Origin: Eremomyces bilateralis CBS 781.70
Lineage: Eukaryota
Assembly (NCBI GenBank): GCA_010015585.1
Contig: ML975167.1
DNA: 52,483 bases
Reading direction: 5' to 3' (one strand)
Below are positions 751 through 23,788 of the stretch, piece by piece (the first letter of the stretch is position 1; every line of letters begins with the position of its first letter). A program made the translations under genes and the position numbers. The notes under the pieces were generated by a model, which ran no database searches, was not told the DNA's origin, and saw only the letters and a list, made by a program, of their open reading frames with translations.

Positions 751-1421
751 TTAAATATTGCGCGGTACAGGCCGGCGGCGGACGAGCCAACAGCGGGGCC
801 ATCTCTCCGAATTCTGTGAGAATCCAAGCATTGTCGTCTTTGTTCATCATGTCAAAGCGAAGCAGAGTCCTTTGGCCTCGTCATGATTGGAGCAAGCGGG
901 TTTCAGTAGCCCTTTCATGCTCCAGGCGCGAAATCCTGAAGTTCTGCCGCCCAAAATGGCTCCCAGGCCCCCTTGGAAATGGCCGGCTGTATCATTGCCC
1001 ATCCCACTGTTAGGGTAACATTGTCTGCAATCATTGCCTTTGAATGAGACAGGATGCGGATCAATTCTGCCATTTACACCCCTTGCTCTGCTTATTTGCT
1101 TTGCCATTGCTATCAATCACGCCGTTGAGCCCTTGGAAGCGGTGATTGGTGCCTTGCACACTCCATACCCGGGCCATCTCATCCCTCCTGCGGTACCTTT
1201 GCTCTGCGACAACTCTTCGAACACTACGATTTTGGCAAATTTCTCGACGGGAACTATAGACCTACCAGAAGAAAGCTTCGAATTGGTACCGAAGAGAAGG
1301 ACCGACGCTGCGTTGGCGATGCACCAACCCAGACCAGACTCGTACTTCATCAAGACCGTCTTATCACCTCCCTCGACCTATAGGCCTGTATAGTGCCGCC
1401 AAATCCGAAGTATTCGAAACC

Positions 1422-3587
1422 ATGGTCACGATCGCCGAACCGCCTATGATGACCAGTATCGTACCTCCCGAACCCTCCGAACCCGTCGGACCCGATAGCA
1501 TCACAAACCGCAAAACCAATGGGGTTATTGAGGTTCAGGAAATCGATGTTCCTGAGAAGCCGTCGCTGTTAGTCTTGATAGAGGACGGGCAAGACGAAAT
1601 TCTCAGTATAGTGGCTGATGTGCTCGGGCAGCCATGTTGTCTGGTCTCATCGTGTGATACGGTCCAGCAGGAACCATATCATACAGTCCTCGGTCTTCAT
1701 AGCAAACTCGTCGCAGCGGATGTCCGAAGCTTAGCACCGAGCAGGACGGTCATCCATACTCATTGCGTGGATAATCCAGTCGAAAGTGACCCGGCTCTCT
1801 CACAGATATGTGATTATGAGTATTTGTACTCTATGACCCCGTATCTGAGGAGAGATGTAGCACGATTCCTCGGATTTATCCTCGGCCAGATAGGCCACCA
1901 TCGAGATTTGACGAAGAAGAAACGAACCACTCTGATTTCAACCACATTTCCAGACGTCCATGCTGCTCTTCCCAACCTGGACATCCTTTCTGTCGGAGCG
2001 GACGCTGTCGAACTAAGAGTGGATCTCCTCAAAGAACCACTTCCGGATGGGACCTTCCGAGATGTCCCAAGCCTCAAGTTCGTCGGGGAGCAGCTTATGA
2101 CGCTACGGCAACGTACCGAACTGCCCATTATATATACGACTAGGTGTACGAAAGAAAACGGCCGTTTCCCTATGGATGAGCCGAACCTGTTCCTGACATA
2201 TCTATACCGAGCGATACAGTGGGGTTGCGAATACATCGATGTCGAGTTGTGGCTACCAGAAGACATTCGACGCACTCTGTCCGAGAGGAAGGGAAACAGC
2301 AAGATCATCTCGGCATTCCACGACTTTTCGGGGACCTTTAGATGGACTGCACCCGAAGCAGAAGAACTATTTCGCCACGGAGCTGTGTATGGAGACGTGG
2401 TGAAAATGATCGCCCTCACCAACACGGTGCAGGAGAACTACGAGCTGGAGTACTTCCGGTCCACCATACAATCGAGATACCCGCATCCTCCTCTTTCAGC
2501 GCTCAACATGGGTTCCACCGGCCAGCTTTCTCGAACATTGAACAAAGTCTTCACTCCGATCACCCACCCCCTCCTTCCCATGATTGCCGCACCCGGCCAG
2601 CTTTCGGCAGCGGAAATCAATGCGGCACTTCACACCATGGGACAACTGCCACGACGCGATATCTATGGTATCGTGTCAGCACGAGCTGCAACAAGAGCTG
2701 TCTTTTTTGAGAAGTGCTTCAATGAGCTCGGTCTTCCTCACGTTTTCACCTTTGTTGAACGCGGTCCGATAACTAGACATGCTGTCAATATCTCCTCGGT
2801 AGTTCACCGTCCCTTGTTTGGCGGGGCATACCTTAATCCACCGTTAGCTGTATCACATGCCTCATATCTGCCGCAACTCTCTCCGGCTGCCAGAGCAATC
2901 GGCCAGGTGGACACGGTCGTCCTATCAAAGACGCTTTTGGCCACAACTTCACTCGCAGTCGGACAACCTGGGATGGAAGGAAGCTCCTTTGTTGGCGACA
3001 ACTGCACCTGGAAGGGGATTCGAGCGACTCTAACCCACGACTTTGTCCCCAGCGCATACCGCGGCCGCGCTGCTCTGCTCCTCGCTTCGGACGAGTCGTC
3101 CGCGACCCCCGCCATATTCGCCCTGAAGTCCTTGGCTATTGGCCCCATCTACACCGTCGGCTTCACCATCAAGGCCACACAGACTCAGGGGCAGGAAGTC
3201 CTTGGCGTCGGACTAGGTGCTGGTTTGCAGCCTGTCCGCTCGGTCGAGGATGTCAAACGACTTGAGCGACCATTCGCTATCATCAGTGCCTTGCCTGGAG
3301 ATAAAGGTGCCTTGGTTGCACCATTGCTGCGGCATTACGGGCCTGTCAAGACGGATGAGAGCTCAAGAGGCACGGCAGGCAAAGTGTTTGTCGACTTGGT
3401 AGGTGGGACAGGGAGCCGCAGGGAGCGGGATAAGGACCCCGTGGCCGTGGCAGCAAGCCTTGGCTGGTCTGCATATGGGGTTGCGGATGTGGCTGCTTGG
3501 ACAACGGTTGAGACGTTGCGGCTACTTGTGGGACAGAATGTGCCGTTTGATTTTGTGAGGTTCGCCAGTGGACGAGGGGTGTACTGA
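1422..3587 (+). CDS. gaaX: AROM-derived transcriptional repressor (GaaX/QutR class): degenerate shikimate-kinase-like region, type I DHQase domain, degenerate shikimate dehydrogenase domain
   Basis: Intronless 721 aa ORF. DHQase I motifs GADAVELRVDLL, PIIYTTR, YIDVEL, SAFHDF, DVVKMI, ALNMGSTGQLSR and APGQLS are present. SDH motifs are eroded (GGAYLNPPL, IGQVDT, GDNCTWKG). It lacks the DHQ synthase and EPSP synthase domains and lies next to a Zn2Cys6 gene. The class call is strong; gaaX versus another QutR paralogue is inferred. Confidence 0.75.
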   Translation: MVTIAEPPMMTSIVPPEPSEPVGPDSITNRKTNGVIEVQEIDVPEKPSLLVLIEDGQDEILSIVADVLGQPCCLVSSCDTVQQEPYHTVLGLHSKLVAADVRSLAPSRTVIHTHCVDNPVESDPALSQICDYEYLYSMTPYLRRDVARFLGFILGQIGHHRDLTKKKRTTLISTTFPDVHAALPNLDILSVGADAVELRVDLLKEPLPDGTFRDVPSLKFVGEQLMTLRQRTELPIIYTTRCTKENGRFPMDEPNLFLTYLYRAIQWGCEYIDVELWLPEDIRRTLSERKGNSKIISAFHDFSGTFRWTAPEAEELFRHGAVYGDVVKMIALTNTVQENYELEYFRSTIQSRYPHPPLSALNMGSTGQLSRTLNKVFTPITHPLLPMIAAPGQLSAAEINAALHTMGQLPRRDIYGIVSARAATRAVFFEKCFNELGLPHVFTFVERGPITRHAVNISSVVHRPLFGGAYLNPPLAVSHASYLPQLSPAARAIGQVDTVVLSKTLLATTSLAVGQPGMEGSSFVGDNCTWKGIRATLTHDFVPSAYRGRAALLLASDESSATPAIFALKSLAIGPIYTVGFTIKATQTQGQEVLGVGLGAGLQPVRSVEDVKRLERPFAIISALPGDKGALVAPLLRHYGPVKTDESSRGTAGKVFVDLVGGTGSRRERDKDPVAVAASLGWSAYGVADVAAWTTVETLRLLVGQNVPFDFVRFASGRGVY

Positions 3588-6030: not shown

Positions 6031-8966
6031 ATGTCGCGACCCCAGGTTGGAATCGATCGCCTACCAGCGAGACGGATGAGCAACGAACCGAGGGAGTCCA
6101 TGAATTGCAAGAGTTGTCGGAAGAGAAAAGTAAGCATATTGTCCACAGAGACGATGCGACTGGCATCAGAGGGGGTCGAGTGGATTGGGATTTATGTGCT
6201 GACTTTAAAACGGTGAAAGATAAAATGCAACCGAATGCGCCCGACTTGTGAAGCGTGCCAGATATTCGCATGCCAGTGTGTCTATGGTGAGATCTACATT
6301 ATCCATGGTAAGGTCCATTCGTACCAGAAGGTGCTGACTGTGGTCAAAGACGCTATCCCAAAGAAACGTGGGCCCAAAACCGATGTTCTCGAGGCATTGC
6401 TCAAGCGTGTCGACGGCCTTGAAAAGAGACTACAAACCGAAGAATCCGAGAAACAAGAAGAAGAGCCGGTGTCGTCAAACGAAAGTGCAGTCGACAATGT
6501 CGTACAAGACTCAAGTCACGGTGCCGCGAACGATCAAGCCGGAGCGACTGCAAATCACAAATCTTCCGAACCAGAGCAACCCCATTCGAACAACATACCA
6601 CCGCTCATCCCCCCGGAAGGCAACTCGTACGTGGATCCAACACCCAGAATAATGGTACAGTACTGACAATACACAGCCAACCCCCTCCCAGTATATACCC
6701 GGAGGTGCTCGTCGATGCATACTTTGCTCAACTTCATGGCAAACCCTACTATATCCTTGATGAATTGTCCACTCGCCAGAAGATACAACTTAAGCAACTT
6801 CCGAACCCGCTTGCTTATGCTATATATGCTGTTAGCGCAAGGTGAGAACGGATCCCCCTCGAAGCCTTATGACATCCACAGACTAACTGGAATTCGAGAT
6901 ATGCTTCTCATGTCGGAGGCTATGCAAATGCTGTACGCGTGTCGATAGATTTCGCTAAGAAGGCTCGGCTTGAGCTCGACGTAGACGAGCCCTCTATCGA
7001 ATCGTTACAGGCACTCCTGCTACTGTCGTTAGCAAGCTATCAAAATGGACGAGGAAAGAAGGCGTACATGCTTTTATGTGAGTTCACGTTCAAATTGATC
7101 CCGCCATGTCTGACACTAGGTATAGCCTCTGCTATTACCATGGCTCTAGCTCTAGGTCTCCATAGGGAACTCCCCTCAACAATGAGGATCCCCGCCACTG
7201 AACGAGAAGGTCGAAGACGATTGTTCTGGGCGTGCTATCTCCTCGATCGATTTGGAGCTTGCGGTTCGAGACGGCCATCCCTGATTGCCGACGAATCCAT
7301 CGTCCTCCGGCTGCCCTCATGGCAGCTTCATCCAAGCGGCATGACCATCGAAGGCGATTACTTCTCGACCGGTTCGAATCTCCAATATCTAAGAAGTGGG
7401 AAGCAAAGTCATGGAGGGAGTGGCATGCTTATTGGTATCACTCGAATACTAGGAGTGACGAATCGATACCTAGCAAATGGAGGTGTGAAAGGGGACTCGC
7501 ACTTCCCTTGGCACTCACTTTCTAATTTGTCCAAAATCCGACAAGACCTGGACATGTGGGCATCAGAGACGCAGGACGTCTTTGCATCCTTGGAGACGCT
7601 TTTCGGCCAACCAGACAGTACGATTCTCGTATTAAGCAAGCTGGTCTACCACCTTATTCATTGTCTAATCTACCGCCCATTCCTTCCCATCGACCTCACC
7701 GAGCTCTCCGGTAATAGTCAGCATCAATCCTGGCAAATCGAAGCGACGAACATGTGTTTTCTCCACGCCAACGCAATTTCTGAGCTCGTCGAGATCGGGA
7801 AGGCATCTACCCTTATTGAATGGCCGGAATTTATCGGCTACTGTGTCAGCACTGCTGGAATGATCCATGTTCATGGGACACATTATCGAGGCGGCGAAGG
7901 AGGGGATCGAACCGTCTTCGCGGGAAGCCCAGAGTTCCTATCCCGAGAGATGCAGCAGCTCTCCGAACTGCGGTCCATATGGGCAGGAGTTCAACATCAG
8001 TGTGATATGCTGCAGGCAATTTACAATTGTCATATTGAACTCGTCAAATCGCTTGCTTCAAATCCTCTTCGTTTCTCATCTGTCTTTCACCTCGAAGGGT
8101 TCTTCGATCGGTACCCTGGTCGGATGTTCGACGGGTCGCATCTGTCGTTCGTCGAAATACAAGTCGACCCAATGGCATTTGAGAGCACCATGTCTCCATA
8201 CGGACTCAATAATCAAGGGTTTGTGAATATGGCCCTCGGGTCAAATGGATCTATGATTCATCAGCAACAGCAATACTTCCCACCGCAACGGCAGGTGTCC
8301 GCATCAGTGCCTCAAGGGGGGCGAAAGAGAAGACGCACGACGACATCGAATCCTACCAAACCCTCACCCCCTCTCAGTGCGGCTGCTATTCCCTCAAACA
8401 GCAAAAAGCAGCCTCAGGACACTTCTGGTACTCAACCCTTTATGTCCGAGCTTCCACCACCGAACCAAACACTCTCTTCTTCTGAGACCAAGCCTCCACC
8501 CTCTCAGCAGCCTAACCCTTCGGGTCCAATCTTCTCTCCCAACTTCTCTTTCTCTCCTCTCCAACCTACGAATTTCCCGAATCCCACAAACAACGCCACA
8601 AATCCCTCGCAGCCTTCCTCTACTAATAACTATAACAATAACGGCCCATCCTACCGTTTCCCTGACCAGCTGCTCTCCCTTCCCTTCGACGGATCAACAA
8701 GCACGGATCCATCCGGCCAACCGATTTTGGGATACGAAGCGTCCGGCACGAATACGATGTCCAATTCGGCGTTTGTGAGCATGCCCGGCCCATCCGACAT
8801 GCAGACACCCGGATCAAGTTCGGCGGTGAGCGGAGGCGGGACGAGTGGAAGCGCGGAAGGGGAGAAGGATCCTTTCTTGAGCTTACTTGAACAGCTTGCG
8901 GAGAGCGAAGGACCGGATGGAGGAGGTCTCGATTTGGATTTCTTCCTGGCTGGTGGGAACGCCTAA
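6031..8966 (+). CDS. gaaR: Zn(II)2Cys6 transcription factor with fungal-specific TF middle domain, GaaR-like (~875 aa)
   Basis: Exons 6031-6129, 6220-6286, 6350-6626, 6677-6841, 6899-7077 and 7126-8966 sum to 2628 nt in frame. Spliced cluster [46 protein letters not shown] motif; acidic C-terminus [10 protein letters not shown]...LDLDFFL. The symbol rests on recalled GaaR similarity plus adjacency to the AROM-derived repressor. Confidence 0.75.
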
Positions 8967-10539
8967 AACATCTGTATTTGTCTGGATGGTTGCGTGGGTC
9001 GGAGCTTTTGACAGGTTCATATGAATCTGGGTTATCTGGTCAAACAGGAAGGTCAGGGCCATGAATGTCTATATGATAGTTTTTATTATTGTAAATTTAA
9101 CGTTTTGATGAATCGTGACGATATATGCTCGATTTCTGTTTAGTTGCCGTGGCTTGACATGTGAAAGAGAGAGAGAGTGAGAGATTCATACGCCCGTCAG
9201 GCCTCTCTGCGAGGCCCATGTGGGGAACTAGCTAGGATGACTAATTACATTATGGTTGCCTTGTGTCCTTATGGCCTTGTCAATATATCATATCAGTATT
9301 TCTTTCCTGCCGCTTTCCATTTTCCGCGTCGCTTGACATGTGCGGTCGTCTGTGGTCTTGCCATAATATCGTGAAGACTGAATTATATCCACGTGATGAT
9401 CGACAATCCGGCAATCTAGTCCAGATTTTCAACCTTCGTTCCTTTCCATCAACCAAATATTCCGTACACGTACCGTATCGCATATCAACCGCGGCGTATT
9501 GCCGCTCTCAAGAACGATATGTATCGTCATTTGGTCGCATAAAAGTTCCCTACCCCCGCATTCGCATTTTGCCCTCGAGGGATGCTGTGTGCAGCATCCC
9601 ATGGTAGCCCACTTTGTCGGCTCCAGGTTACAAGATGCAGTCTAGAACTCCAGAGGGTCCCAATCTCTCAGATAGGCCTCGTTGGATCATTAGGCGTCTG
9701 CCGTGTGCCCTTCACTGGAGTGTGCAAGACAAAAAGACTGTCTCGGTTTCACTCAATACCGGTAGCAAGCATTGAAAGGTGCTGAGAGGTCAATGGAGGG
9801 CTTGGATACCAATGACCGGAGCCAGAATGGTGCTATGATCCCGTCCTTCGTATTATACGACGACTGACGGCATTGTTGCTGCGGCTCATATCACGATCCT
9901 GCAGACGTCAATCCATAAGTACTTATTTTTCGCTATTCATTCTACTTCATTATATATTAATACAGAGCCACTAACGGGGCTCCGCCTTGAACATGTCAGA
10001 TTGTACACATAATATTCGTCATTGGTCAGGTTCGCGGCAGCATCCGAACCAGACGTTGTCCCAGGAGCTGGATACTGTGGAGATGTCTGTCCCAAGCTTT
10101 AGACGACCGAAGAGATGGTCATGCGGGAGTCTCGGTTTCCTTGTTATATCTCTGGTTTATCTTCTCCTTGAAAGTCGAGACTTAGCTTGTCGAACATACC
10201 GCAACTCATCTACTCCGATTGTTCCGTTTTGCACTGTTCCGATGTTGACAGCTGGGTATCGTACAACCGGACTTTATAAGCTATCTTCGGCATAGACCCT
10301 TCCACGATCCATATGGTTCCTCGTTCAAATGATTCCACACTTCTGACGCCAGACGCAGTCTCACCACTCATCGCCTATAGAATCATACCTATTAGCTAGC
10401 TATCTCGTATCTTGCTCTCGATATACAAACCTCATGTCGAACAACCTAGTCGCTCAAGTCGAGGTCTAGGGAATCCTTATACGATGCATATTCGCATCAC
10501 ACGGTTCATGAAAGCCTGCTAGGTTCCATTCTATCCACC

Positions 10540-13435
10540 ATGGAGCCCATGGAGCCGTCGCTGCTGATACCAGCTCATGAGGAGTACGTAGGAGGGGTCT
10601 TCCCGGATCGCTCTCTATCAGTACTCGCAGTAACAGCGATTATGATAACGTTGGCGGCAGTGTTTGTCCTCTTCCGCATGGCTTCTAGAGTTGGCATAGT
10701 CAAAAAGTTGGGATGGGACGACTACTTCATGATACTAGCCTTGGTAAGCCTTTGCATCACTCCCTTCGGCTATGGATCGGCGGTGCTAACGGAAAACCAC
10801 CATAATAGGTCATCGCATTTGGCATGTCCTTTTCAATATGCTATGCGACGAGATGGGGGCTCGGGCGGCACGACATCAATATTCCGTTCGAATGGTTTTC
10901 GCTGTTAAAAACCCTTGAGTATATCTTTACGGTGCTTTATGTGGGCCTACCTTGTATGAGTTCAAAAGCGCACATCGCTGACTTGCTTTACAGCAACCAG
11001 CGTTAATGGCCTCGAAGACGTCAATCCTGATATTCTACCTGCACCTATCGAAAGGCAACAGTCTCATCTGGTGGCTTACCATTGTGACAATGGTCGTAGT
11101 CAACACCGTCGGGTTTGCATTGACTATGCTCAGCGTCTTTCAATGCCGCCCATTGAAATCTATATTCGACCCGCGTATAACCGCATCGACGTGCATCGAC
11201 ATTTTATCACTTTATCTCTCATCATCACCACTAAACCTGATCACGGATCTCGCGATGCTCTTTCTTCCGATGCCGCTCCTGACGGGCATGCGGCTACCAA
11301 GGAAACAGAAGATCATCCTGATCATCACCTTTGGTTTTGGCCTTTTTGTGACGGCCATAGATGTCGTGCGCGTGGCGTATCTCCAGCAGGCGTTGGAAAC
11401 TCGACTCCAAGAAGCACACGACCACCCTGAAGATCAGAGTCCCAACAACTATCTCAACTTCCACTGGTATGCCGCACTCTCATACATGTGGAGTGCTGTT
11501 GAAGTGAATGTGGGAATAATGTGCGGATGCGTGCCAGCACTAAAGCCGCTTGCGTCGAGGTTTTTGCCGCGCGTCCTTCGTGATGATCGCTCTCCATCCA
11601 CTGAGGTTCCTGGTCTCACATTGCAGACTGCACGCAAGGCATCCGAGCAGAACGATTTGCAACCAATGGTGTCGGAGCCGGAGCAAGTACTCAATGCTGA
11701 GAGGGCAGTAGACGAGCCAATGGGGATGATGGACTTCATCGATACTCCTAATCTGAACCAACTCCCTTCGGGGGTGAGGCCGTCGATAGCATCAAACGCA
11801 TATCATCGACCCGAGGCGGCGACGCCAAGGGCGAGCGTCGCTGATGATACATTTTACGGCTTCATCGACATACAGCAGAGACGAAAGCTTGTTAACTTGA
11901 CGGCCCGCCAGTCGCTATTCCCAATAACCATGGTTACGATCTTGTTCTTTTTGTGGGGTTTCGAGTACGGACTCATAGATGTTCTTAACCGCCAGTTTCA
12001 ACAGGCAGTAGACATGTCTGATGGGCAGCTCGTCGCCCTTCATTCTGCCTATTTCTCCGGCTATTTCGTCGCTCCCCTGACGTTCGGTCGAATAATTTTG
12101 AAGCGGTTGGGTTTCAAACCGTGCTTTCTGGCTGGACTTTTCATCTATGCCTGTGGGATCCTCGTGTTCTGGCCCTCTGCGGTGCTCACATCATTTCCAG
12201 CTCTAATTATCTCGAACATCATCGTCGGTATGGGGCTTGCGACATTGGAGGTTGGGGCAAACCCATTCATCGCACTTTGCGGGCCGTCTGCATATGCGGA
12301 GGTAAGACTCAGCATCTCGCAGGGAATTCAAGCAATCGGCAGCCTTGTCAGTCCTCTCCTCGCCGAGCGAGCTCTCTACAAAGTCGTGGCAGACAAGCCA
12401 TCTCTTATCGACGCTCAATGGGCCTATCTCGGTATTGCACTGTTTACCGTCCTCCTTGCCGTCGTCTACTACTACCTCCCGCTTCCGGATGGCACCGACG
12501 AGGACTTCGAAACGGCTCCACCCTCTCGAAACGCCGCCTTTCCTGACCATACAGAAGTACGCATCCCATTCCTCGACCGATGGACCTGTATTGGGCGCAT
12601 ACAAATCGTGACTCTAACCGCTATTCTCGGCGTCGGGTCCCTGTTCTTCTACTGCGGTGGCCAAGAAGCGGTCTCCACGTCCATCGTCACATACATTAAT
12701 CTGCTCCATCCCTTCCGAACCCTCACCATTTCAGGCTACCAATCCATATGCCATGGCATATTTGCGTTTGGTCGCTTCCTCGCCGCAGGCCTCATCTACT
12801 TCATCAAGCCGCGCCGCATCCTCCTCTCCTGCTTCCTAGGAGCATTGATTTTCTCCATCTGCGCTATGAACTTCCGTGACATCAATGACGGTGTCCCATC
12901 CGTAACTTTCATCGTCCTAATCAGCTTCTTTGAAGGCCCAATCTTCTCTATCATATACGCCATGGCAATCCGTGGAACCGGGAAACACGTCAAGATGACC
13001 AGTACGTTCCTCACGGCCGCTATCTCCGGGGGTGCTTGTTTGCGTCCGATCATGTTTGTCGCATTTCTTCGCCATGATGCGCTTTATAGCTACTGGGTTG
13101 TCGTCATGGCGTTCGCGTGTGGGACTGTGTTTCCCTTGTGGCTGTGGCTGGATCCTCGGCCGAAGAAGATCGTGGACCCTGGTCAGAGGCTGTGTGATTG
13201 CTCGGCGTTGAGGAAGCCGAAGGGACAGGACGAACGGAAGGGTAAGATGCGAGAGCAATGCGGAAGTGGGAACGTCAATGCCGCGAGGGGTCCCGAGCCG
13301 AGGGGACAGGAACCGAGTGAGAACATCTTTGAGAAGGACTGGGCTCTACCTTTCCGCCAGGGGCAGGAAGATGTAGAGCATAGTGGTGGATCGAGCAGGT
13401 CACGGGACCATGGCTCACATGAGCCATCGGAATGA
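10540..13435 (+). CDS. Fusion of PTH11-like (fungal rhodopsin-like 7-TM) domain and L-fucose:H+ symporter (FHS/FucP-type MFS) domain, ~925 aa
   Basis: Exons 10540-10743, 10809-10940 and 10994-13435. N-terminal PTH11 motifs: LGWDDYFMILA, GLGRH, KTSILIFY, FQCRP, NLITDLAMLFLPMP, WSAVEVNVGIMCGCVPALKP. C-terminal FucP motifs: LFFLWGF..GLIDVLN, LATLEVGANPF, RLSISQGIQAIG, FFYCGGQE, FFEGPIFSIIY. The domain junction lies inside one exon. Confidence 0.9.
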
Positions 13436-13745
13436 TTCGTTTGCTTTGGTTGCTTTGGCTGTTTTGGCGTATGTTTACTTTTTGGTATAACACACAGCGT
13501 TGGATGGAAGCGTTTTGTCTGCACTGAATACCCCCTCCTTGAATTTACTGATCGTTTACACATCTTTGTTTTAATCTTCACAACACCACACCAGTCTTCT
13601 TGTCTACTGTGCGTAGCTGTCTACCATTCTGGACACTACAATGAAAACAGTTCGCATTTAAGAGGCGCCCCTGGCTCCTTCGAAATTGAACAACCCCCAG
13701 TGAAAACTTCCTGGGAATCCATAATCCATATTGACCACGGTCAGA

Positions 13746-14749
13746 ATGGCTGACTCAGCAAGCTATCCCTGTTAATCACTCGACGGGCAATGCTGAATCC
13801 TCATTCAAAGCACTTGCACCCTCCTTTCGTCCTAAGCACCCTTCATATTCCGCAAACGATCGGCGTGTTGACTTCGGTTGCATCAACTTCCGTCACCGGG
13901 GTTACCCTGACTGCGAGAATATCCTGTTCTGTTTACCGCAACTGGACAGTGCAACGGGCGGCATCCATCATGAGACTGTGAGGATTTCATGCGCCATCGT
14001 GGCTGAATGTGCTTGGGACAGATACTTCACTGAAACGAGAGGTGAGCCGAGATCAGTTAGGATAGTTGCCTTAGAGCAAAGGGTTACTACTTCTATGTCC
14101 CATCAGACAGCATTTCGATTAAAGGTTAGTTCATACCCAACCAAGGATAGGTGGCAGTGTTGATTAAGGCAAAACAGGTGATACCTACCGCGTTGTTCCG
14201 TTATTCGAACAATTTGAGTTCCCCCACAACGATCTCCCCCCAAGTTGGGAAATCCTGAAACGGCAACCCAGATCGCCAGTAAACGCTCAGACAAAATTTC
14301 AAAGGCAATATGTGATATTAATGAACCGGACCTATGGGATTACTGCGGTTACCCTCATCCCGAAGTCTCGACAAACGTGGTACTTGACGCACAACATGAA
14401 CCAATACCACCGTTTGACAATGGCTGCACATTATTTCTCTGTGCAGATATCAATGAGCAATACCGTGAGAAGCGCATAGTGATCGTGCCAAAGGCGGGGA
14501 CATAGGTTGTTCATGTCTTCAAAACAGAATAGCAACTCGACATCATCCAGCAGTACCACAATGTCACCGCATATCCGCTTCAGTACATCAATATCGAGTA
14601 CTTGTTCGCTCGGTCCGCTTTCACTGGGCTGGACTATTGCCGATTCATTCGACAAGGCAGCAATCGAGATCTACTATTCGGACGGACACTGGATGTCGCA
14701 CGCCATATACAACGAGTCCCTGGTAGTGGAAGTTTGGGGATTGCTATGA
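13746..14749 (+). pseudogene. Decayed fungal HNH-nuclease-domain (HNH_2-like) gene
   Basis: Colinear family-like blocks occur across shifting frames: INFRHRGYPDCENILFCLPQLDSATGGIHHETVRISCAIVAECAWDRYFTETR / DSCLRAKGYYFYVP / (intron 14125-14177) DTYRVVPLFEQFEFPHNDLPPSW / TLIPKSRQTWYLTHNMNQY / LFLCADINEQYREKRIVIVPKAGT*VVHVFKTE*QLDIIQQYHNVTAYPLQYINIEYLFAR / WTI. There are several frameshifts and in-frame TAGs at 14503 and 14530. Confidence 0.7.
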
Positions 14750-15969: not shown

Positions 15970-17356
15970 TTAATCGTAACAGAAACAATAAGGGAAGCCA
16001 GACATGGTATCTAGAGCTGCTCGAATTGTCGTCGACTCGCCAACCAAGTCCGCGCCAATTACATCATCCAACATGGCGTTAGGACTCGGTGGCTCATTTT
16101 TCCGGGTCCTCGTGCCGTGAACGACGTTCAACCGGTTTGCATTGTCCAATTCTTGATTCTGCCATGTCCAAAACACTCGATCCAGCATGGTGTGGTGAAA
16201 CCAGAACGCCGGGTCGGCGGGAGAGGTATAAAAGTCCGAGCCGGGGTCGCCGCCGATGGTGAAGTGGCCGGCGCCGTGAATGCCGGGTATGTTTCGGCTT
16301 GCGATGCCGTTGAGAAACGCTTGGTAATCCTCGATTGTCTGGGGCTCGGAGATGGCGCGAGCAACGTCGCTGTCTTTCAGGGCAGCGGTGGAAACCGCGG
16401 GATTGAGGTCGCGACGGATGCAGCGAGGGTTGTAGGCGTAGCCGTCCTCGCGATCGTTCATCTTGATGTTGTCAAGTTTCGTGGAGACGGGCCCGAGGTT
16501 GACCTTCCAGCTGTTCACTGTGTTAGAGCAATTGGGCACAACTGGAGATCCGATATATGTTGCACGTACTCTTTGAATGGACCATTGGTGATGCAACCGC
16601 CACCTCCCTGGTTCGAGACTGTTAGAAGTGGTGGATCGCCAATTTCGTAGGCAGTGTAGTTGTCATATAAGCCAGTCCCACCAAGGCTTAAGTCGCTTCC
16701 GTCAAAGACAGGAGACTTTCTTGGGTCGTCGCTGTGCCTAGCCCAATTCCAATACTGAGTCCGGATTAGAAGGTGTAGGATAAGCTGATTAAGGGAAGAT
16801 TTACTGGTTGGTAGCCTTCATACCCGCATTCATTTCGAAGAGCTGACTCGAATAAGAAAATAAAATGCCGGTGCCATGTCAAGAAGTTGCCCTATTGCTC
16901 ATCAGATTATGAGGGTCCAGTAATACATCTCAGTCTAGCCTACAGTATCATGAATGGTCTGTGACTGGTCCATATGCGCAAAGACAAAGTCATCGTATCG
17001 AGTCCTGGCGCCTGGCACTTTGGCGGGATCTAAGGTAGTAGGAAGATTTCCCAAGCACTTGACCGCGTCGATGTAACTTTGCCTCTCCGTGGGCTCCAAG
17101 TATCCCCTATAGTCTTCGATCAGTCTGTGGCAACGGAGGAGGTTGAAGAAATATCTCACCATTCCCTTCGCCGAGCAGCGTTCTGAACTCCGCAACTATT
17201 ATTGGTCCCAACCGGTGAGACATCCCTCGCGAACACGTTCCCACGTGCACGCATAGCGAGCCTATCAGTCTCTAAAAATGAACTGGAAAAAACACCTTGA
17301 GCGAAAACAGTCTGGGCTGCAGAAAGCAGGGACAACGAAAGAAATAGTCGCACCAT
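15970..17356 (-). CDS. Secreted tyrosinase / di-copper centre protein
   Basis: Five exons. Signal peptide MVRLFLSLSLLSAAQTVFA; RRREW; YIDAVKCL; CuA site FVFAHMDQSQTIH..GNFLTWHR; PYWNW; GGGCITNGPF; NPRCIRRD; CuB site IHGAGH...SPADPAFWFHHTMLDRVFW. There is no C-terminal shielding domain. Confidence 0.92.
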
Positions 17357-18489: not shown

Positions 18490-18662
18490 CTCCAGGTTTA
18501 CATTCTCGCAACAACACGGCAAGCCGTGAACCCCGCCGAAAGATGCCGTCCTATTGTACTTATTGATCTAGACGAGATCTTAACATTGTACTTTCTTCAG
18601 AGTTCAGTGGGTGTATTACGTGATAGCCATCGATCGACTAGACATTTCTTGAAATCCCCAAC

Positions 18663-19782
18663 ATGACCTCCCAAGCCAACCTCGGGGTTCCGAACCTCTT
18701 CAACGTTCGCAACCATGTCTGTCTCGTTACTGGTGGAGCGAGCGGCTTGGGCGAGATGGCCGCTCAGGCCTTCGTCCAGAACGGCGCACGAGTGATCATC
18801 GCCAGCCGGAAAGAGGCTGAGTTGAAAAAGGTAAACATGTTCCATCGCGAAGCGGTCCGCCCTGCTGATTTCCATCGAAAGGTCACCGCTCGATTAAATG
18901 GTCTTGGGCCAGGACGATGCGAATACATCGTTGCAGACCTCAAAGACAAGGCGGGATGCCTCGCTTTTTGTAGCGAAGTTGAGAAGAGGACCGATAGAGT
19001 AACTCTTCTCCTGAACAACTCTGGCGCTACGTGGGGCGCACCTTATGAAGACTTCCCGGAGAGCGGCTGGGACAAAATCATGGCCTTGAACGTCAAGGCG
19101 ATTTATTATAGTATGTTGTCCAACGGGATCTGTTCAAATAGAGTACTAACATAACCTCAGCTACTGTTGGGTACGCTAAGGCTTCCTATTTAGCTAAAGA
19201 AAAAATCTAACCCAGATTTAGCTTGGAGGCACTCCTTAAGAAGGGCGCAACTGCGCACAATCCGAGCGCGATCATCAACATTGCATCAATGGCTGGTGTC
19301 CAGACCACCGATGTCACCTCTACGGAAGAGGGCGGCCTCTCCGCTCCCGGTCACGGACCTTTCAGCTGTAAGTCTCTTTTAACCCGTCGAGTCTCATCTG
19401 CTCATCAAGATATAAGACGGCCCATCCAAGGCTGCCTGTATCCATCTGTCCAAGCTCCAGGCTTCGAAACTCGCTACGAGGCACATCAATGTGCATTGCG
19501 TCTGCCCGTAAGTCGCCCGTCCGCTTGATTCGTACCCTTAAGCTCACCATTCACAGCGGCGTTTTCCCATCGCGCATGTCCGCATTCGGCCTGGAGAAGG
19601 CAGGGGATGCCCTGCTCTCACGACAGCCGACGGGACGTGTTGGAAAGCCGGAAGATTTTGCTGGACTGATCCTCTTTTTGAGCAGTGTTGCCTCCGCCCA
19701 TATGACCGGTGGCGTGTATGAGATTGACGGCGGCAGCACGCTGTCCGGATGGCGTTCCAACAAGAAATCGACGAAGTTGTAA
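18663..19782 (+). CDS. Short-chain dehydrogenase/reductase (RhlG-like classical SDR), C-terminus -KKSTKL
   Basis: TGGASGLG, LLNNSG, INIASMAG, spliced YGPSK catalytic motif, CPGVFPSRM, PTGRVG and DGG. Six exons including a 10-nt microexon at 19161-19170. Confidence 0.9.
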
Positions 19783-22904: not shown

Positions 22905-23788
22905 TCACAACTTATGCTTCTTCTCCCCCGAGGCGATCTTCCGGAACTCCTCTTGGGGAACCCCGCTCAAGAAGCGCTGCAGACCACCAAACACTTCATG
23001 GACGCCCTGCGCATCGTGCAGGTCGTTATACGGCCTCCGGATCAGCGCCTTCGTCTTCGTCATGCTGTCGGGGACCAGATGGGTCCCCATGCGGTCGTTG
23101 ACCTCCTCGATGACCTTCGCCAAGAATTTGTCCGAGTCCTTGTTGGTGTCGAACACCTTGTTCACAAAGCCGACATGCACCAGCTCGTCGATGGTGAGGC
23201 GCTTGCTCATGATGAGCGCCTCATTGGCCTTGCTGATCCCGAGGCGTTGCACGAACGCGAGACTGGCGTTGCCTTCGGCGACCAGGCCCAAGCTGCTAAA
23301 CGGGGTGAGGAGGAAGGCGTGAGGCGCAGCGTAGACGAAGTCGGCGTGCGCGACGATGGCGGCGGACAGGCCGACCGCAGGGCCGTTGAGGGCGAAGACC
23401 AGGATCTTCGGGTGGGAGTAGAAGGCGTGGGTGATGTGGAGGTTGTTGGAGACGAAGGACTTCAGCGAGGCGCGTCGGGGGTCCTCGTTGGGGTCATTGT
23501 CACGCGAGATGCCGACATCAGCACCGCTGTCGTTGTCGATTAGTCCATGTTCGATGGCATTGGACCTCGCGGCGGGTGGAGTTCGACTTACGCGCTGAAG
23601 TATCGTCCCTTGCCGGTGACGATGGTGATGAAGACCTCATCGTGGCTGGCAACCTCATGCATCAACTTGGCGAGCTGGAAATATCGGTCGGCATCGAGAG
23701 CATTGAGCTTGTGCTGTCGGTCCAAGGTGATGATGGCGATCCGCCCGCGGTATTCGACCGAAACATCCTGTTCTGGGGTAGTAGACAT
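22905..23788 (-). CDS. ECI1: Peroxisomal delta3,delta2-enoyl-CoA isomerase (crotonase family)
   Basis: Exons 23788-23592 and 23526-22905. KLNAL, TGKGRYFSAGADV, ALNGPAVGLSAA, LGLVAEGNAS; C-terminus GEKKHKL as in fungal Eci1. Confidence 0.9.

Follow-up and report, generated by a model that had tools for sequence, protein, structure and literature searches.

A Pth11-type seven-helix domain joined to an FHS-family permease in Eremomyces bilateralis: a plausible sensor-transporter architecture

Eremomyces bilateralis CBS 781.70 possesses a gene in which a receptor-like membrane domain and a sugar-type transporter are encoded as one polypeptide. It is located at positions 10540-13435 (+ strand) of a 52,483-nucleotide stretch of contig ML975167.1 (assembly GCA_010015585.1), referred to here as the window, and its three exons encode a protein of 925 amino acids. 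As judged from the sequence and from the RNA that matches it, this is one real, transcribed gene for a predicted 19-helix membrane protein composed of a Pth11-type seven-transmembrane (7TM) domain, a hydrophilic linker, a 12-helix permease of the fucose:H+ symporter (FHS) family within the MFS (major facilitator superfamily), and a tail of about 90 residues. We put the chance at roughly one in two (0.5) that the protein is a permease of the FHS type which moves a sugar-like solute and, in this species, is coupled to protons, and whose activity, trafficking or signalling would be controlled in cis by an indispensable 7TM domain together with conserved linker motifs. The protein is already annotated and its family is large; rather than a new sequence, it represents a variant, so far overlooked, of two kinds of protein that are known.

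Results

The gene model was obtained from an open reading frame (ORF) listing and scripted splicing, and the spliced translation agrees letter for letter with the 925-residue database protein (P0002), which NCBI names 'MFS general substrate transporter [Eremomyces bilateralis CBS 781.70]'. All of its parts lie on the + strand. Exon 1 (10540-10743) begins with the ATG at 10540 and contributes 68 codons for the acidic N-terminus, the first helix of the 7TM domain and the beginning of its second. It is separated by intron 1 (10744-10808; 65 nucleotides, GT..AG, with a GTAAGC donor at 10744 and a TAG end) from exon 2 (10809-10940; 44 codons), which supplies the remainder of this second helix and the loop that precedes helix 3. 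After intron 2 (10941-10993; 53 nucleotides, GT..AG, GTGGGC..CAG) follows exon 3 (10994-13435; 813 codons plus the stop), one open frame contained in a single stop-to-stop ORF (10982-13435) and encoding 7TM helices 3-7, the linker, the whole MFS domain and the C-terminal tail. When the exons were compared separately with Pfam, exon 1 gave a weak match to profile positions 1-24 of PF20684, the family of the 7TM domain, and exon 3 alone matched PF20684 positions 69-236 as well as the whole MFS domain. The junction between the two halves thus lies within one exon.

Transcript evidence comes from run X1, the only public run with the locus, whose type is a guess ('RNA?'). A single contig of this run, 3710 nucleotides long, covers positions 10300-13700 without differing letters. 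The introns missing from it are exactly the two predicted ones, cut at their GT..AG ends, with the joint at 10742/10808 (cut +1) for intron 1 and from 10940 to 10994 for intron 2, and the contig contains no other joint. Spliced RNA of the locus therefore exists, and its coverage runs unbroken through the 7TM domain, the linker and the MFS domain. The contig overhangs position 10300 by about 300 nucleotides and position 13700 by about 127 (the flanks of the gene being 10000-10539 and 13436-13827 of the window), which points to long untranslated regions or to read-through from neighbouring transcription.

A composite protein of this kind could arise on paper if annotation or assembly had wrongly merged two neighbouring genes, and database entries of 1619 and 1424 residues in the same family, perhaps merged, show that such errors occur. 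For the gene studied here we found no support for this explanation: one uninterrupted exon covers both domains, the spliced contig spans the whole gene, and hundreds of genomes and metagenome contigs, independent of one another, show the same architecture. A merged-gene artefact is therefore extremely improbable and is excluded as far as sequence data allow. A preliminary description of the window, made from its sequence alone, had placed the junction inside exon 3 and had argued on that ground against gene merging, and it was right on both counts.

The N-terminal half is a full-length representative of PF20684 (Fung_rhodopsin). Residues 45-300 match profile positions 1-236 of 237 (E 3.3e-57; 194 bits against a cut-off of 27), and the only other Pfam family recognized in the 925-residue protein is MFS_1 (residues 428-789, E 1.6e-21). 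No match to the CFEM domain (PF05730) was obtained with Pfam at E values up to 1. The earlier proposal that one chain joins a complete PTH11-like domain to a full MFS domain of the FHS type thus holds for both partners. The 7TM domain as a whole (10612..11557; residues ~25-300) spans both introns and is preceded by about 25 acidic residues. Hydropathy analysis revealed seven peaks before residue 300, and the distribution of lysines and arginines, evaluated by the positive-inside rule and hence a prediction, favours a cytosolic position for the loops after TM1 and TM5 and for the stretch after TM7. This fits a predicted orientation with the N-terminus outside and the C-terminus in the cytosol, and a cytosolic end of helix 7 is needed by a following MFS domain whose own N-terminus is cytosolic. 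An invariant pair of cysteines, C163 and C179, is located in the TM4-TM5 loop, and the polar intramembrane residues R238, E282, D235, N149 and K120 are very strongly kept. In a comparison with PDB entries, among them G-protein-coupled receptors (GPCRs), the 7TM half had no relative (best E 0.058 with the single sequence and E 2 with a profile).

The C-terminal half (11912..13162; residues ~419-835) is a 12-TM MFS domain of the FHS type. Its hydropathy plot contains 11 family-averaged peaks, and TM4, which bears E531, shows in the single-sequence scan only; with the seven N-terminal peaks this gives 7+12 helices, as anticipated in the preliminary description. The only PDB matches of this half are the two E. 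coli FucP structures 3O7Q (HMMER, E 8.1e-32) and 3O7P, and its best NCBIfam matches are fucP, gluP and NagP. In the alignment to 3O7Q the N-domain scores 102.6 bits and has no large gaps. The same alignment identifies D441 (codon 11978..11980) in GLIDVLN and E531 (codon 12248..12250) in TLEVGANP as the equivalents of FucP D46 and E135, two sites that had already been read from the sequence as retained. FucP W38 and Q159 correspond to W433 and Q555, and N162 to Q558.

Both acidic positions were followed through sets of homologues. The E135 equivalent is glutamate in all 119, all 114 and 91 of 107 rows of three such sets. The D46 equivalent is aspartate in 113 of the 119 closest relatives (the best-match set, whose named members are mostly Dothideomycetes) and asparagine in 110 of 114 Sordariomycete relatives, a set that results from a search with the Lasiosphaeria protein and includes the 90%-identity cluster holding Neurospora crassa NCU04310. 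According to these alignments, the 925-residue protein keeps the full FucP acidic pair and the family as a whole does not, and the clades may differ in energy coupling.

Between the two halves lies a hydrophilic, predicted cytosolic linker of about 120 residues without any hydropathy peak (11558..11911; residues ~301-418). It contains two motifs, the first of which includes the string MGMMDFIDTP that had been singled out before. Motif 1, PMGMMDFIDTP, occupies residues 354-364 (11717..11749), and its family consensus is an acidic run followed by M-G-M-M-D-F-L-T-T-P. Motif 2, TFYGFID (11849..11869), is located about 20 residues ahead of MFS helix 1 and has the consensus T-F-F-D-F-V-N. In a 133-row alignment across classes, F360, L361 and P364 of motif 1 are found in 114, 117 and 116 rows and an acidic residue (D/E) at position 359 in 106; for F400, F402 and V403 of motif 2 the counts are 121, 128 and 121. 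The linker motifs are kept in approximately 86-96% of these 133 rows, which come from several classes. Motif 1 is present across classes and missing from some Eurotiales members, and motif 2 is degenerate (NFV) in an unfused protein of Drechslerella and absent from one of Mycena. We count the conserved linker motifs in favour of a putative sensor-transporter function.

The MFS domain is followed by a hydrophilic, predicted cytosolic C-terminal tail of about 90 residues (13163..13432; residues 836-925) with a short V-E-H motif near its end. This motif lies at residues ~898-908 (region 13235-13260 of the window), and its E904 is invariant in a 58-row alignment (A1). Strings resembling V-E-H-x-E also occur in Leotiomycete and Sordariomycete members, and most rows of the wider 133-row alignment are gapped there.

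The fusion is old and widespread and, on the evidence of database sequences, occurs in at least six classes of Pezizomycotina and in Tremellales. Both Pfam domains are present in all 120 best database relatives (44-51% identity, 722-1015 residues), of which those with a name come from many orders of the Dothideomycetes. When cluster representatives were searched exhaustively, 260 proteins were obtained at E values up to 1e-30, and 85 of the best 150 of these representatives (50%-identity clusters) match both halves. Most of the remaining ones are fragments, for example ORF calls on exon 3 beginning at M117, and one 'unfused' row belongs to a 90%-identity cluster that also holds a 957-residue member. 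In the Sordariomycete search PF20684 was found in 120 of 120 best matches, and among 39 longer relatives of the Drechslerella protein, which is unfused, 37 have both domains. The order is always the same, 7TM before MFS, in 119 of 119, 85 of 85 and 118 of 118 fused homologues of three sets. Fused members were found in Leotiomycetes (Pseudogymnoascus), Onygenales (Microsporum), Eurotiales (Talaromyces, Penicillium), Sordariomycetes (Berkeleyomyces, Lasiosphaeria, N. crassa NCU04310, Podospora anserina, Fusarium oxysporum, Colletotrichum), Lecanoromycetes and relatives (Bacidia, Candelina, Endocarpon) and Chaetothyriales. A 'partial' protein of Trichophaea (Pezizomycetes) starts inside 7TM helix 7 and is thus a truncated fused form. 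Only Mycena (32% identity over the MFS half) and Drechslerella yielded close relatives that clearly lack the fusion. A maximum-likelihood tree of 84 MFS halves contains at least two deep fused clades, and many of its 'unfused' rows are truncated gene calls. The existence of similar fusions in other moulds had been mentioned in the preliminary description, which in this respect understated the case.

Outside the Ascomycota, fused proteins were found in the Tremellales (Basidiomycota), namely in Kwoniella shandongensis (P0509) and in a Tremellales sp. (P0138). The Kwoniella protein is 35% identical over 840 residues that include both halves, and both linker motifs are recognisable in it. An ancient origin or gene transfer may account for these copies. 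A survey restricts Pth11-related receptors to Pezizomycotina (PMC12842992), and the Kwoniella protein is at odds with that statement. Some entries are much longer: P0506 of Cudoniella acicularis (1424 residues) has glycoside hydrolase family 13 domains ahead of the 7TM-MFS part, and P0326 of Podospora conica has 1619 residues. Either wrongly merged gene models or further fusions may lie behind them.

The two halves are not equally conserved. When near-full homologues were compared with the 925-residue protein, the 7TM half was the better conserved one in 79 of 79, 28 of 31 and 102 of 102 cases, that is in 209 of 212. Mean identity to this protein among 58 close relatives, mostly named Dothideomycetes, is 57% for the 7TM domain, 28% for the linker, 63% and 42% for the N- and C-terminal halves of the MFS domain, and 17% for the tail; in Sordariomycetes it is 33% for the MFS half versus 48.5% for the 7TM half. 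Seven of the 12 invariant columns of the 133-row alignment (G87, C163, P165, F225, R238, A245 and E282) belong to the 7TM half. The 7TM half is thus constrained at least as strongly as the transporter half, which we likewise count in favour of the sensor-transporter idea.

The same pattern can be read in another way. The yeast glucose sensors Snf3 and Rgt2 bind their solute without transporting it, and by analogy the MFS half might be a non-transporting nutrient sensor that binds a solute while the 7TM half signals to G proteins or cAMP, which would make the protein a fungal counterpart of human LYCHOS/GPR155. The superior conservation of the 7TM half and the fast drift of the MFS half in Sordariomycetes would be expected of such a protein. 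So would the asparagine at the D46 position in that class and the asparagine, glycine, serine or threonine found there in many cluster representatives, and 19 of the 120 Sordariomycete-search matches have no precomputed MFS_1 match. Moreover, class XIV (Pth11-like) is listed among the receptor classes for which there is evidence of signalling through G proteins or cAMP (PMC13308352), and LYCHOS shows that such hybrids exist (PMC11525196). On the other hand, both FucP acidic residues are kept in the 925-residue protein and in 113 of 119 of its closest relatives, and the near-universal equivalents of E135, W38 and Q159 fit an active carrier. G-protein contact is reported for no fused member, and in place of a long signalling tail of the Snf3/Rgt2 type there is only the short, poorly conserved one. 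Taken together, we regard a pure sensor as rather unlikely.

The company that PF20684 keeps elsewhere bears on the function of the 7TM half. In the ESM Atlas the 7TM-MFS architecture is found in three clusters of 60, 184 and 97 members. Another cluster of 52 members (~1015 residues) combines CFEM, PF20684 and a GMC oxidoreductase, and yet another cluster with PF20684 takes its name from satratoxin cluster protein 4. Evidently PF20684 is a modular membrane domain. The CFEM-PF20684-GMC cluster represents a second kind of fusion of the receptor-like domain to a catalytic or transport module. The Atlas also holds a model of the exact 925-residue protein (pTM 0.65, mean pLDDT 0.68), whose 7TM part superimposes on CFEM+PF20684 proteins with a TM-score of 0.88. 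The whole Atlas model superimposes on a model from another fused cluster with TM-scores of 0.81/0.86 over 797 aligned residues, and a superposition across two domains is possible only with the same relative domain placement in both models; as both are predictions for related sequences, this is a weak hint at a fixed 7TM-MFS arrangement.

This modularity, seen in the CFEM-GMC oxidoreductase fusions and in secondary-metabolite cluster proteins, is compatible with a humbler role of the 7TM half. Some animal transporters have accessory subunits, and the protein could be a plain permease with a built-in accessory domain for folding, targeting, oligomerisation or turnover and without a receptor role; PF20684 proteins might then not be GPCRs in general. 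The acidic and hydrophobic linker motifs could serve as sorting or adaptor-binding signals, and the 7TM half is without a sequence relative among solved structures. It also fits that Pth11-like proteins are all without a known ligand (PMC13308352). Arguing for more than a passive anchor are the very strongly conserved polar residues within the membrane, and unfused FHS permeases such as RhtA function alone (PMC5161314). We consider a non-signalling accessory domain fairly unlikely.

Genomic neighbourhood

Upstream of the fused gene, an ORF at 1260-3587 (+) matches that part of AROM which comprises dehydroquinase and shikimate dehydrogenase. This is the architecture that we take to be that of the quinate repressor QutR/QA-1S; enzymes of quinate catabolism were not seen in the window. 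A second upstream gene (6217-8966, +) encodes a Zn2Cys6 transcription factor. The downstream neighbours are genes for a tyrosinase (15970-16662, -) and a short-chain dehydrogenase (18642-19782, +) and an enoyl-CoA hydratase-like ORF (22905-23636, -), none of which was found beside relatives of the fused gene, and the downstream side also holds unrelated housekeeping genes. At 26 related loci with long flanks, an aldo/keto reductase is encoded directly downstream in three and assorted Zn2Cys6 factors are encoded nearby in five. The three aldo/keto reductase genes (L013:7514-8371, L019:13585-14451 and L053:10171-11421) are on the same strand and within about 1.1 kb. At two further loci, L069 and L075, an aldo/keto reductase gene lies approximately 8 kb upstream, and the window has none.

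Discussion

We prefer the reading in which the fused protein is a permease controlled by its own 7TM domain. The MFS half would carry a small solute of sugar-like nature, with a (deoxy)hexose or a similar polar compound as the most likely candidate, together with protons; a sugar-like solute is suggested because the characterised fungal FHS members, RhtA and NCU05897, carry sugars. The 7TM half and the linker motifs would exert their effect on the permease in cis, perhaps by gating it or by regulating how active it is or how it is trafficked, and possibly they also inform the cell of substrate or surface cues. The coupled sensor-transporter, or transceptor, for a sugar or sugar acid that the preliminary description proposed is a plausible reading of the predicted architecture.

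Several observations weigh against this proposal or at least narrow it. The C-domain of the MFS half matches FucP 3O7Q weakly (17.5 bits). The label 'FucP-type', used in the preliminary description, needs tempering: the domain belongs to the FHS family and FucP is its only solved relative, and the half scores 131.6 with TIGR00885 (fucP, E 4.3e-38) against an equivalog cut-off of 280.4 and 107.5 with the PRK10133 equivalog against 427. With these cut-offs missed, the database name 'L-fucose permease' is unjustified as a substrate assignment; by its sequence matches the MFS half is an FHS-family permease (TC 2.A.1.7), not a demonstrable L-fucose permease. The D46 equivalent is variously N, D, G, S or T among the cluster representatives, and its replacement in other clades implies that proton coupling is not family-wide. 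Being an assembled contig, the X1 evidence leaves room for an additional internal start that gives an MFS-only transcript. Of the six neighbour ORFs compared by tblastn with 80 related metagenome loci, five were found in none, and the sixth, the QutR-like ORF, in two, at another position. The 105 flanking ORFs of the 26 long-flank loci are heterogeneous according to Pfam and include no shared catabolic cluster, so that genomic context gives no substrate. Finally, the literature searched contains no report of transport, ligand, G-protein coupling or signalling for any fused member.

According to the Rosetta stone principle, proteins that are fused in some species usually work together. By this logic the 7TM-MFS fusion argues for a partnership between Pth11-type 7TM domains and membrane transport proteins. 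A bolder extension is that all members of the fused family are single-chain receptor-transporters in which the 7TM domain reads permease occupancy or transport and passes it on to G proteins and cAMP, or in which the receptor half gates uptake. On the present sequence evidence we think this improbable. If it were true, free-standing orphan Pth11-like proteins would be partners of transporters or exo-enzymes and not classical ligand-binding GPCRs, and small carbohydrate-type molecules would be their long-sought cues.

The value of the finding lies in this Rosetta-stone link of an orphan receptor class to sugar transport. Pth11-like proteins are the largest candidate GPCR class of filamentous ascomycetes and are involved in host sensing by plant, insect and nematode pathogens; Pth11 itself acts via MagB and cAMP-PKA (PMC13308352). 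For the Pth11-like receptors treated in the same source, including those of F. graminearum, A. oligospora and M. robertsii, no ligand is known. A slowly evolving 7TM-permease subfamily offers a concrete and testable functional link for this class. Should the 7TM half turn out to be a regulatory subunit and not a receptor, this would bear on the GPCR status of class XIV as a whole.

A second consequence concerns annotation. Inventories of sugar transporters count the fused proteins of ~900-1050 residues as ordinary 'fucose permeases', and GPCR inventories appear to omit them. NCU04310 is a case in point: it is one of the four putative FHS sugar transporters (2.A.1.7) of N. crassa, beside NCU05897, and is entered as an uncharacterised 'fucose permease' of 1050 residues induced on fructose (PMC10774165, text and supplementary Table S2). 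Its expression on glucose, xylose and arabinose is modest (table in PMC4015282). The passages on NCU04310 in these two articles make no mention of the 7TM half, and the protein occurs in none of the GPCR papers reached by full-text search. No description of a PF20684-MFS fusion was found in the literature searched, from which subscription journals and supplements other than that of PMC10774165 were outside the scope, and two preprints on 'modular fungal rhodopsins' make no mention of MFS.

Comparison with known systems

The best solved relative of the C-terminal half is E. coli FucP (3O7Q/3O7P), of which the equivalents of D46, E135, W38 and Q159 are kept. FucP differs in that it has no 7TM domain, linker or tail, in the residue at N162, which is glutamine in the fused protein, and in the low identity of the C-domain. 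Transporter folds that sense their substrate and signal are familiar from yeast, where Snf3/Rgt2, Gap1, Pho84 and Mep2 do so via tails or transporter conformations. To our knowledge, none of them has a fused seven-helix domain.

A transporter and a receptor-like domain do occur together in human LYCHOS/GPR155, a lysosomal protein with a DEP domain in which the transporter comes first, the reverse of the order in the fused protein. With a PIN-like transporter and a GPCR-like domain on a single chain it is the nearest architectural analogue in print (PMC11525196), and a preprint calls it a 'transceptor' (bioRxiv 10.1101/2024.09.24.614577). The likeness is one of analogy and not of homology, as the fused protein contains only PF20684 and MFS_1 and no PIN-like, class-B-like GPCR or DEP domain.

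By published classification, RhtA and NCU05897 belong to the same fungal MFS family as the fused protein. RhtA of Aspergillus niger is an L-rhamnose transporter of the FHS family that was expressed alone in transporter-null yeast (PMC5161314). NCU05897 (sut-28) of N. crassa transports L-rhamnose as well and was later named FRT-1, for fucose-rhamnose transporter (PMC7084071, PMC10774165). NCU04310 is the longest protein in a table that spans 424-1050 residues, which suggests that the characterised transporters of the RhtA/NCU05897 type are unfused.

On the receptor side, the closest known system is the Pth11-like (class XIV) proteins, which share the 7TM Pfam family PF20684 that is matched full-length in the fused protein. 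CFEM is present in Pth11 itself and optional in Pth11-like proteins, and the fused protein is without it. The C-terminus of Pth11-like proteins is a free tail, whereas the fused protein continues into a transporter. Finally, Pth11-like genes are described as expanded and fast-evolving (PMC13308352), in contrast to the fused subfamily, which evolves slowly and looks single-copy in the two genome regions seen.

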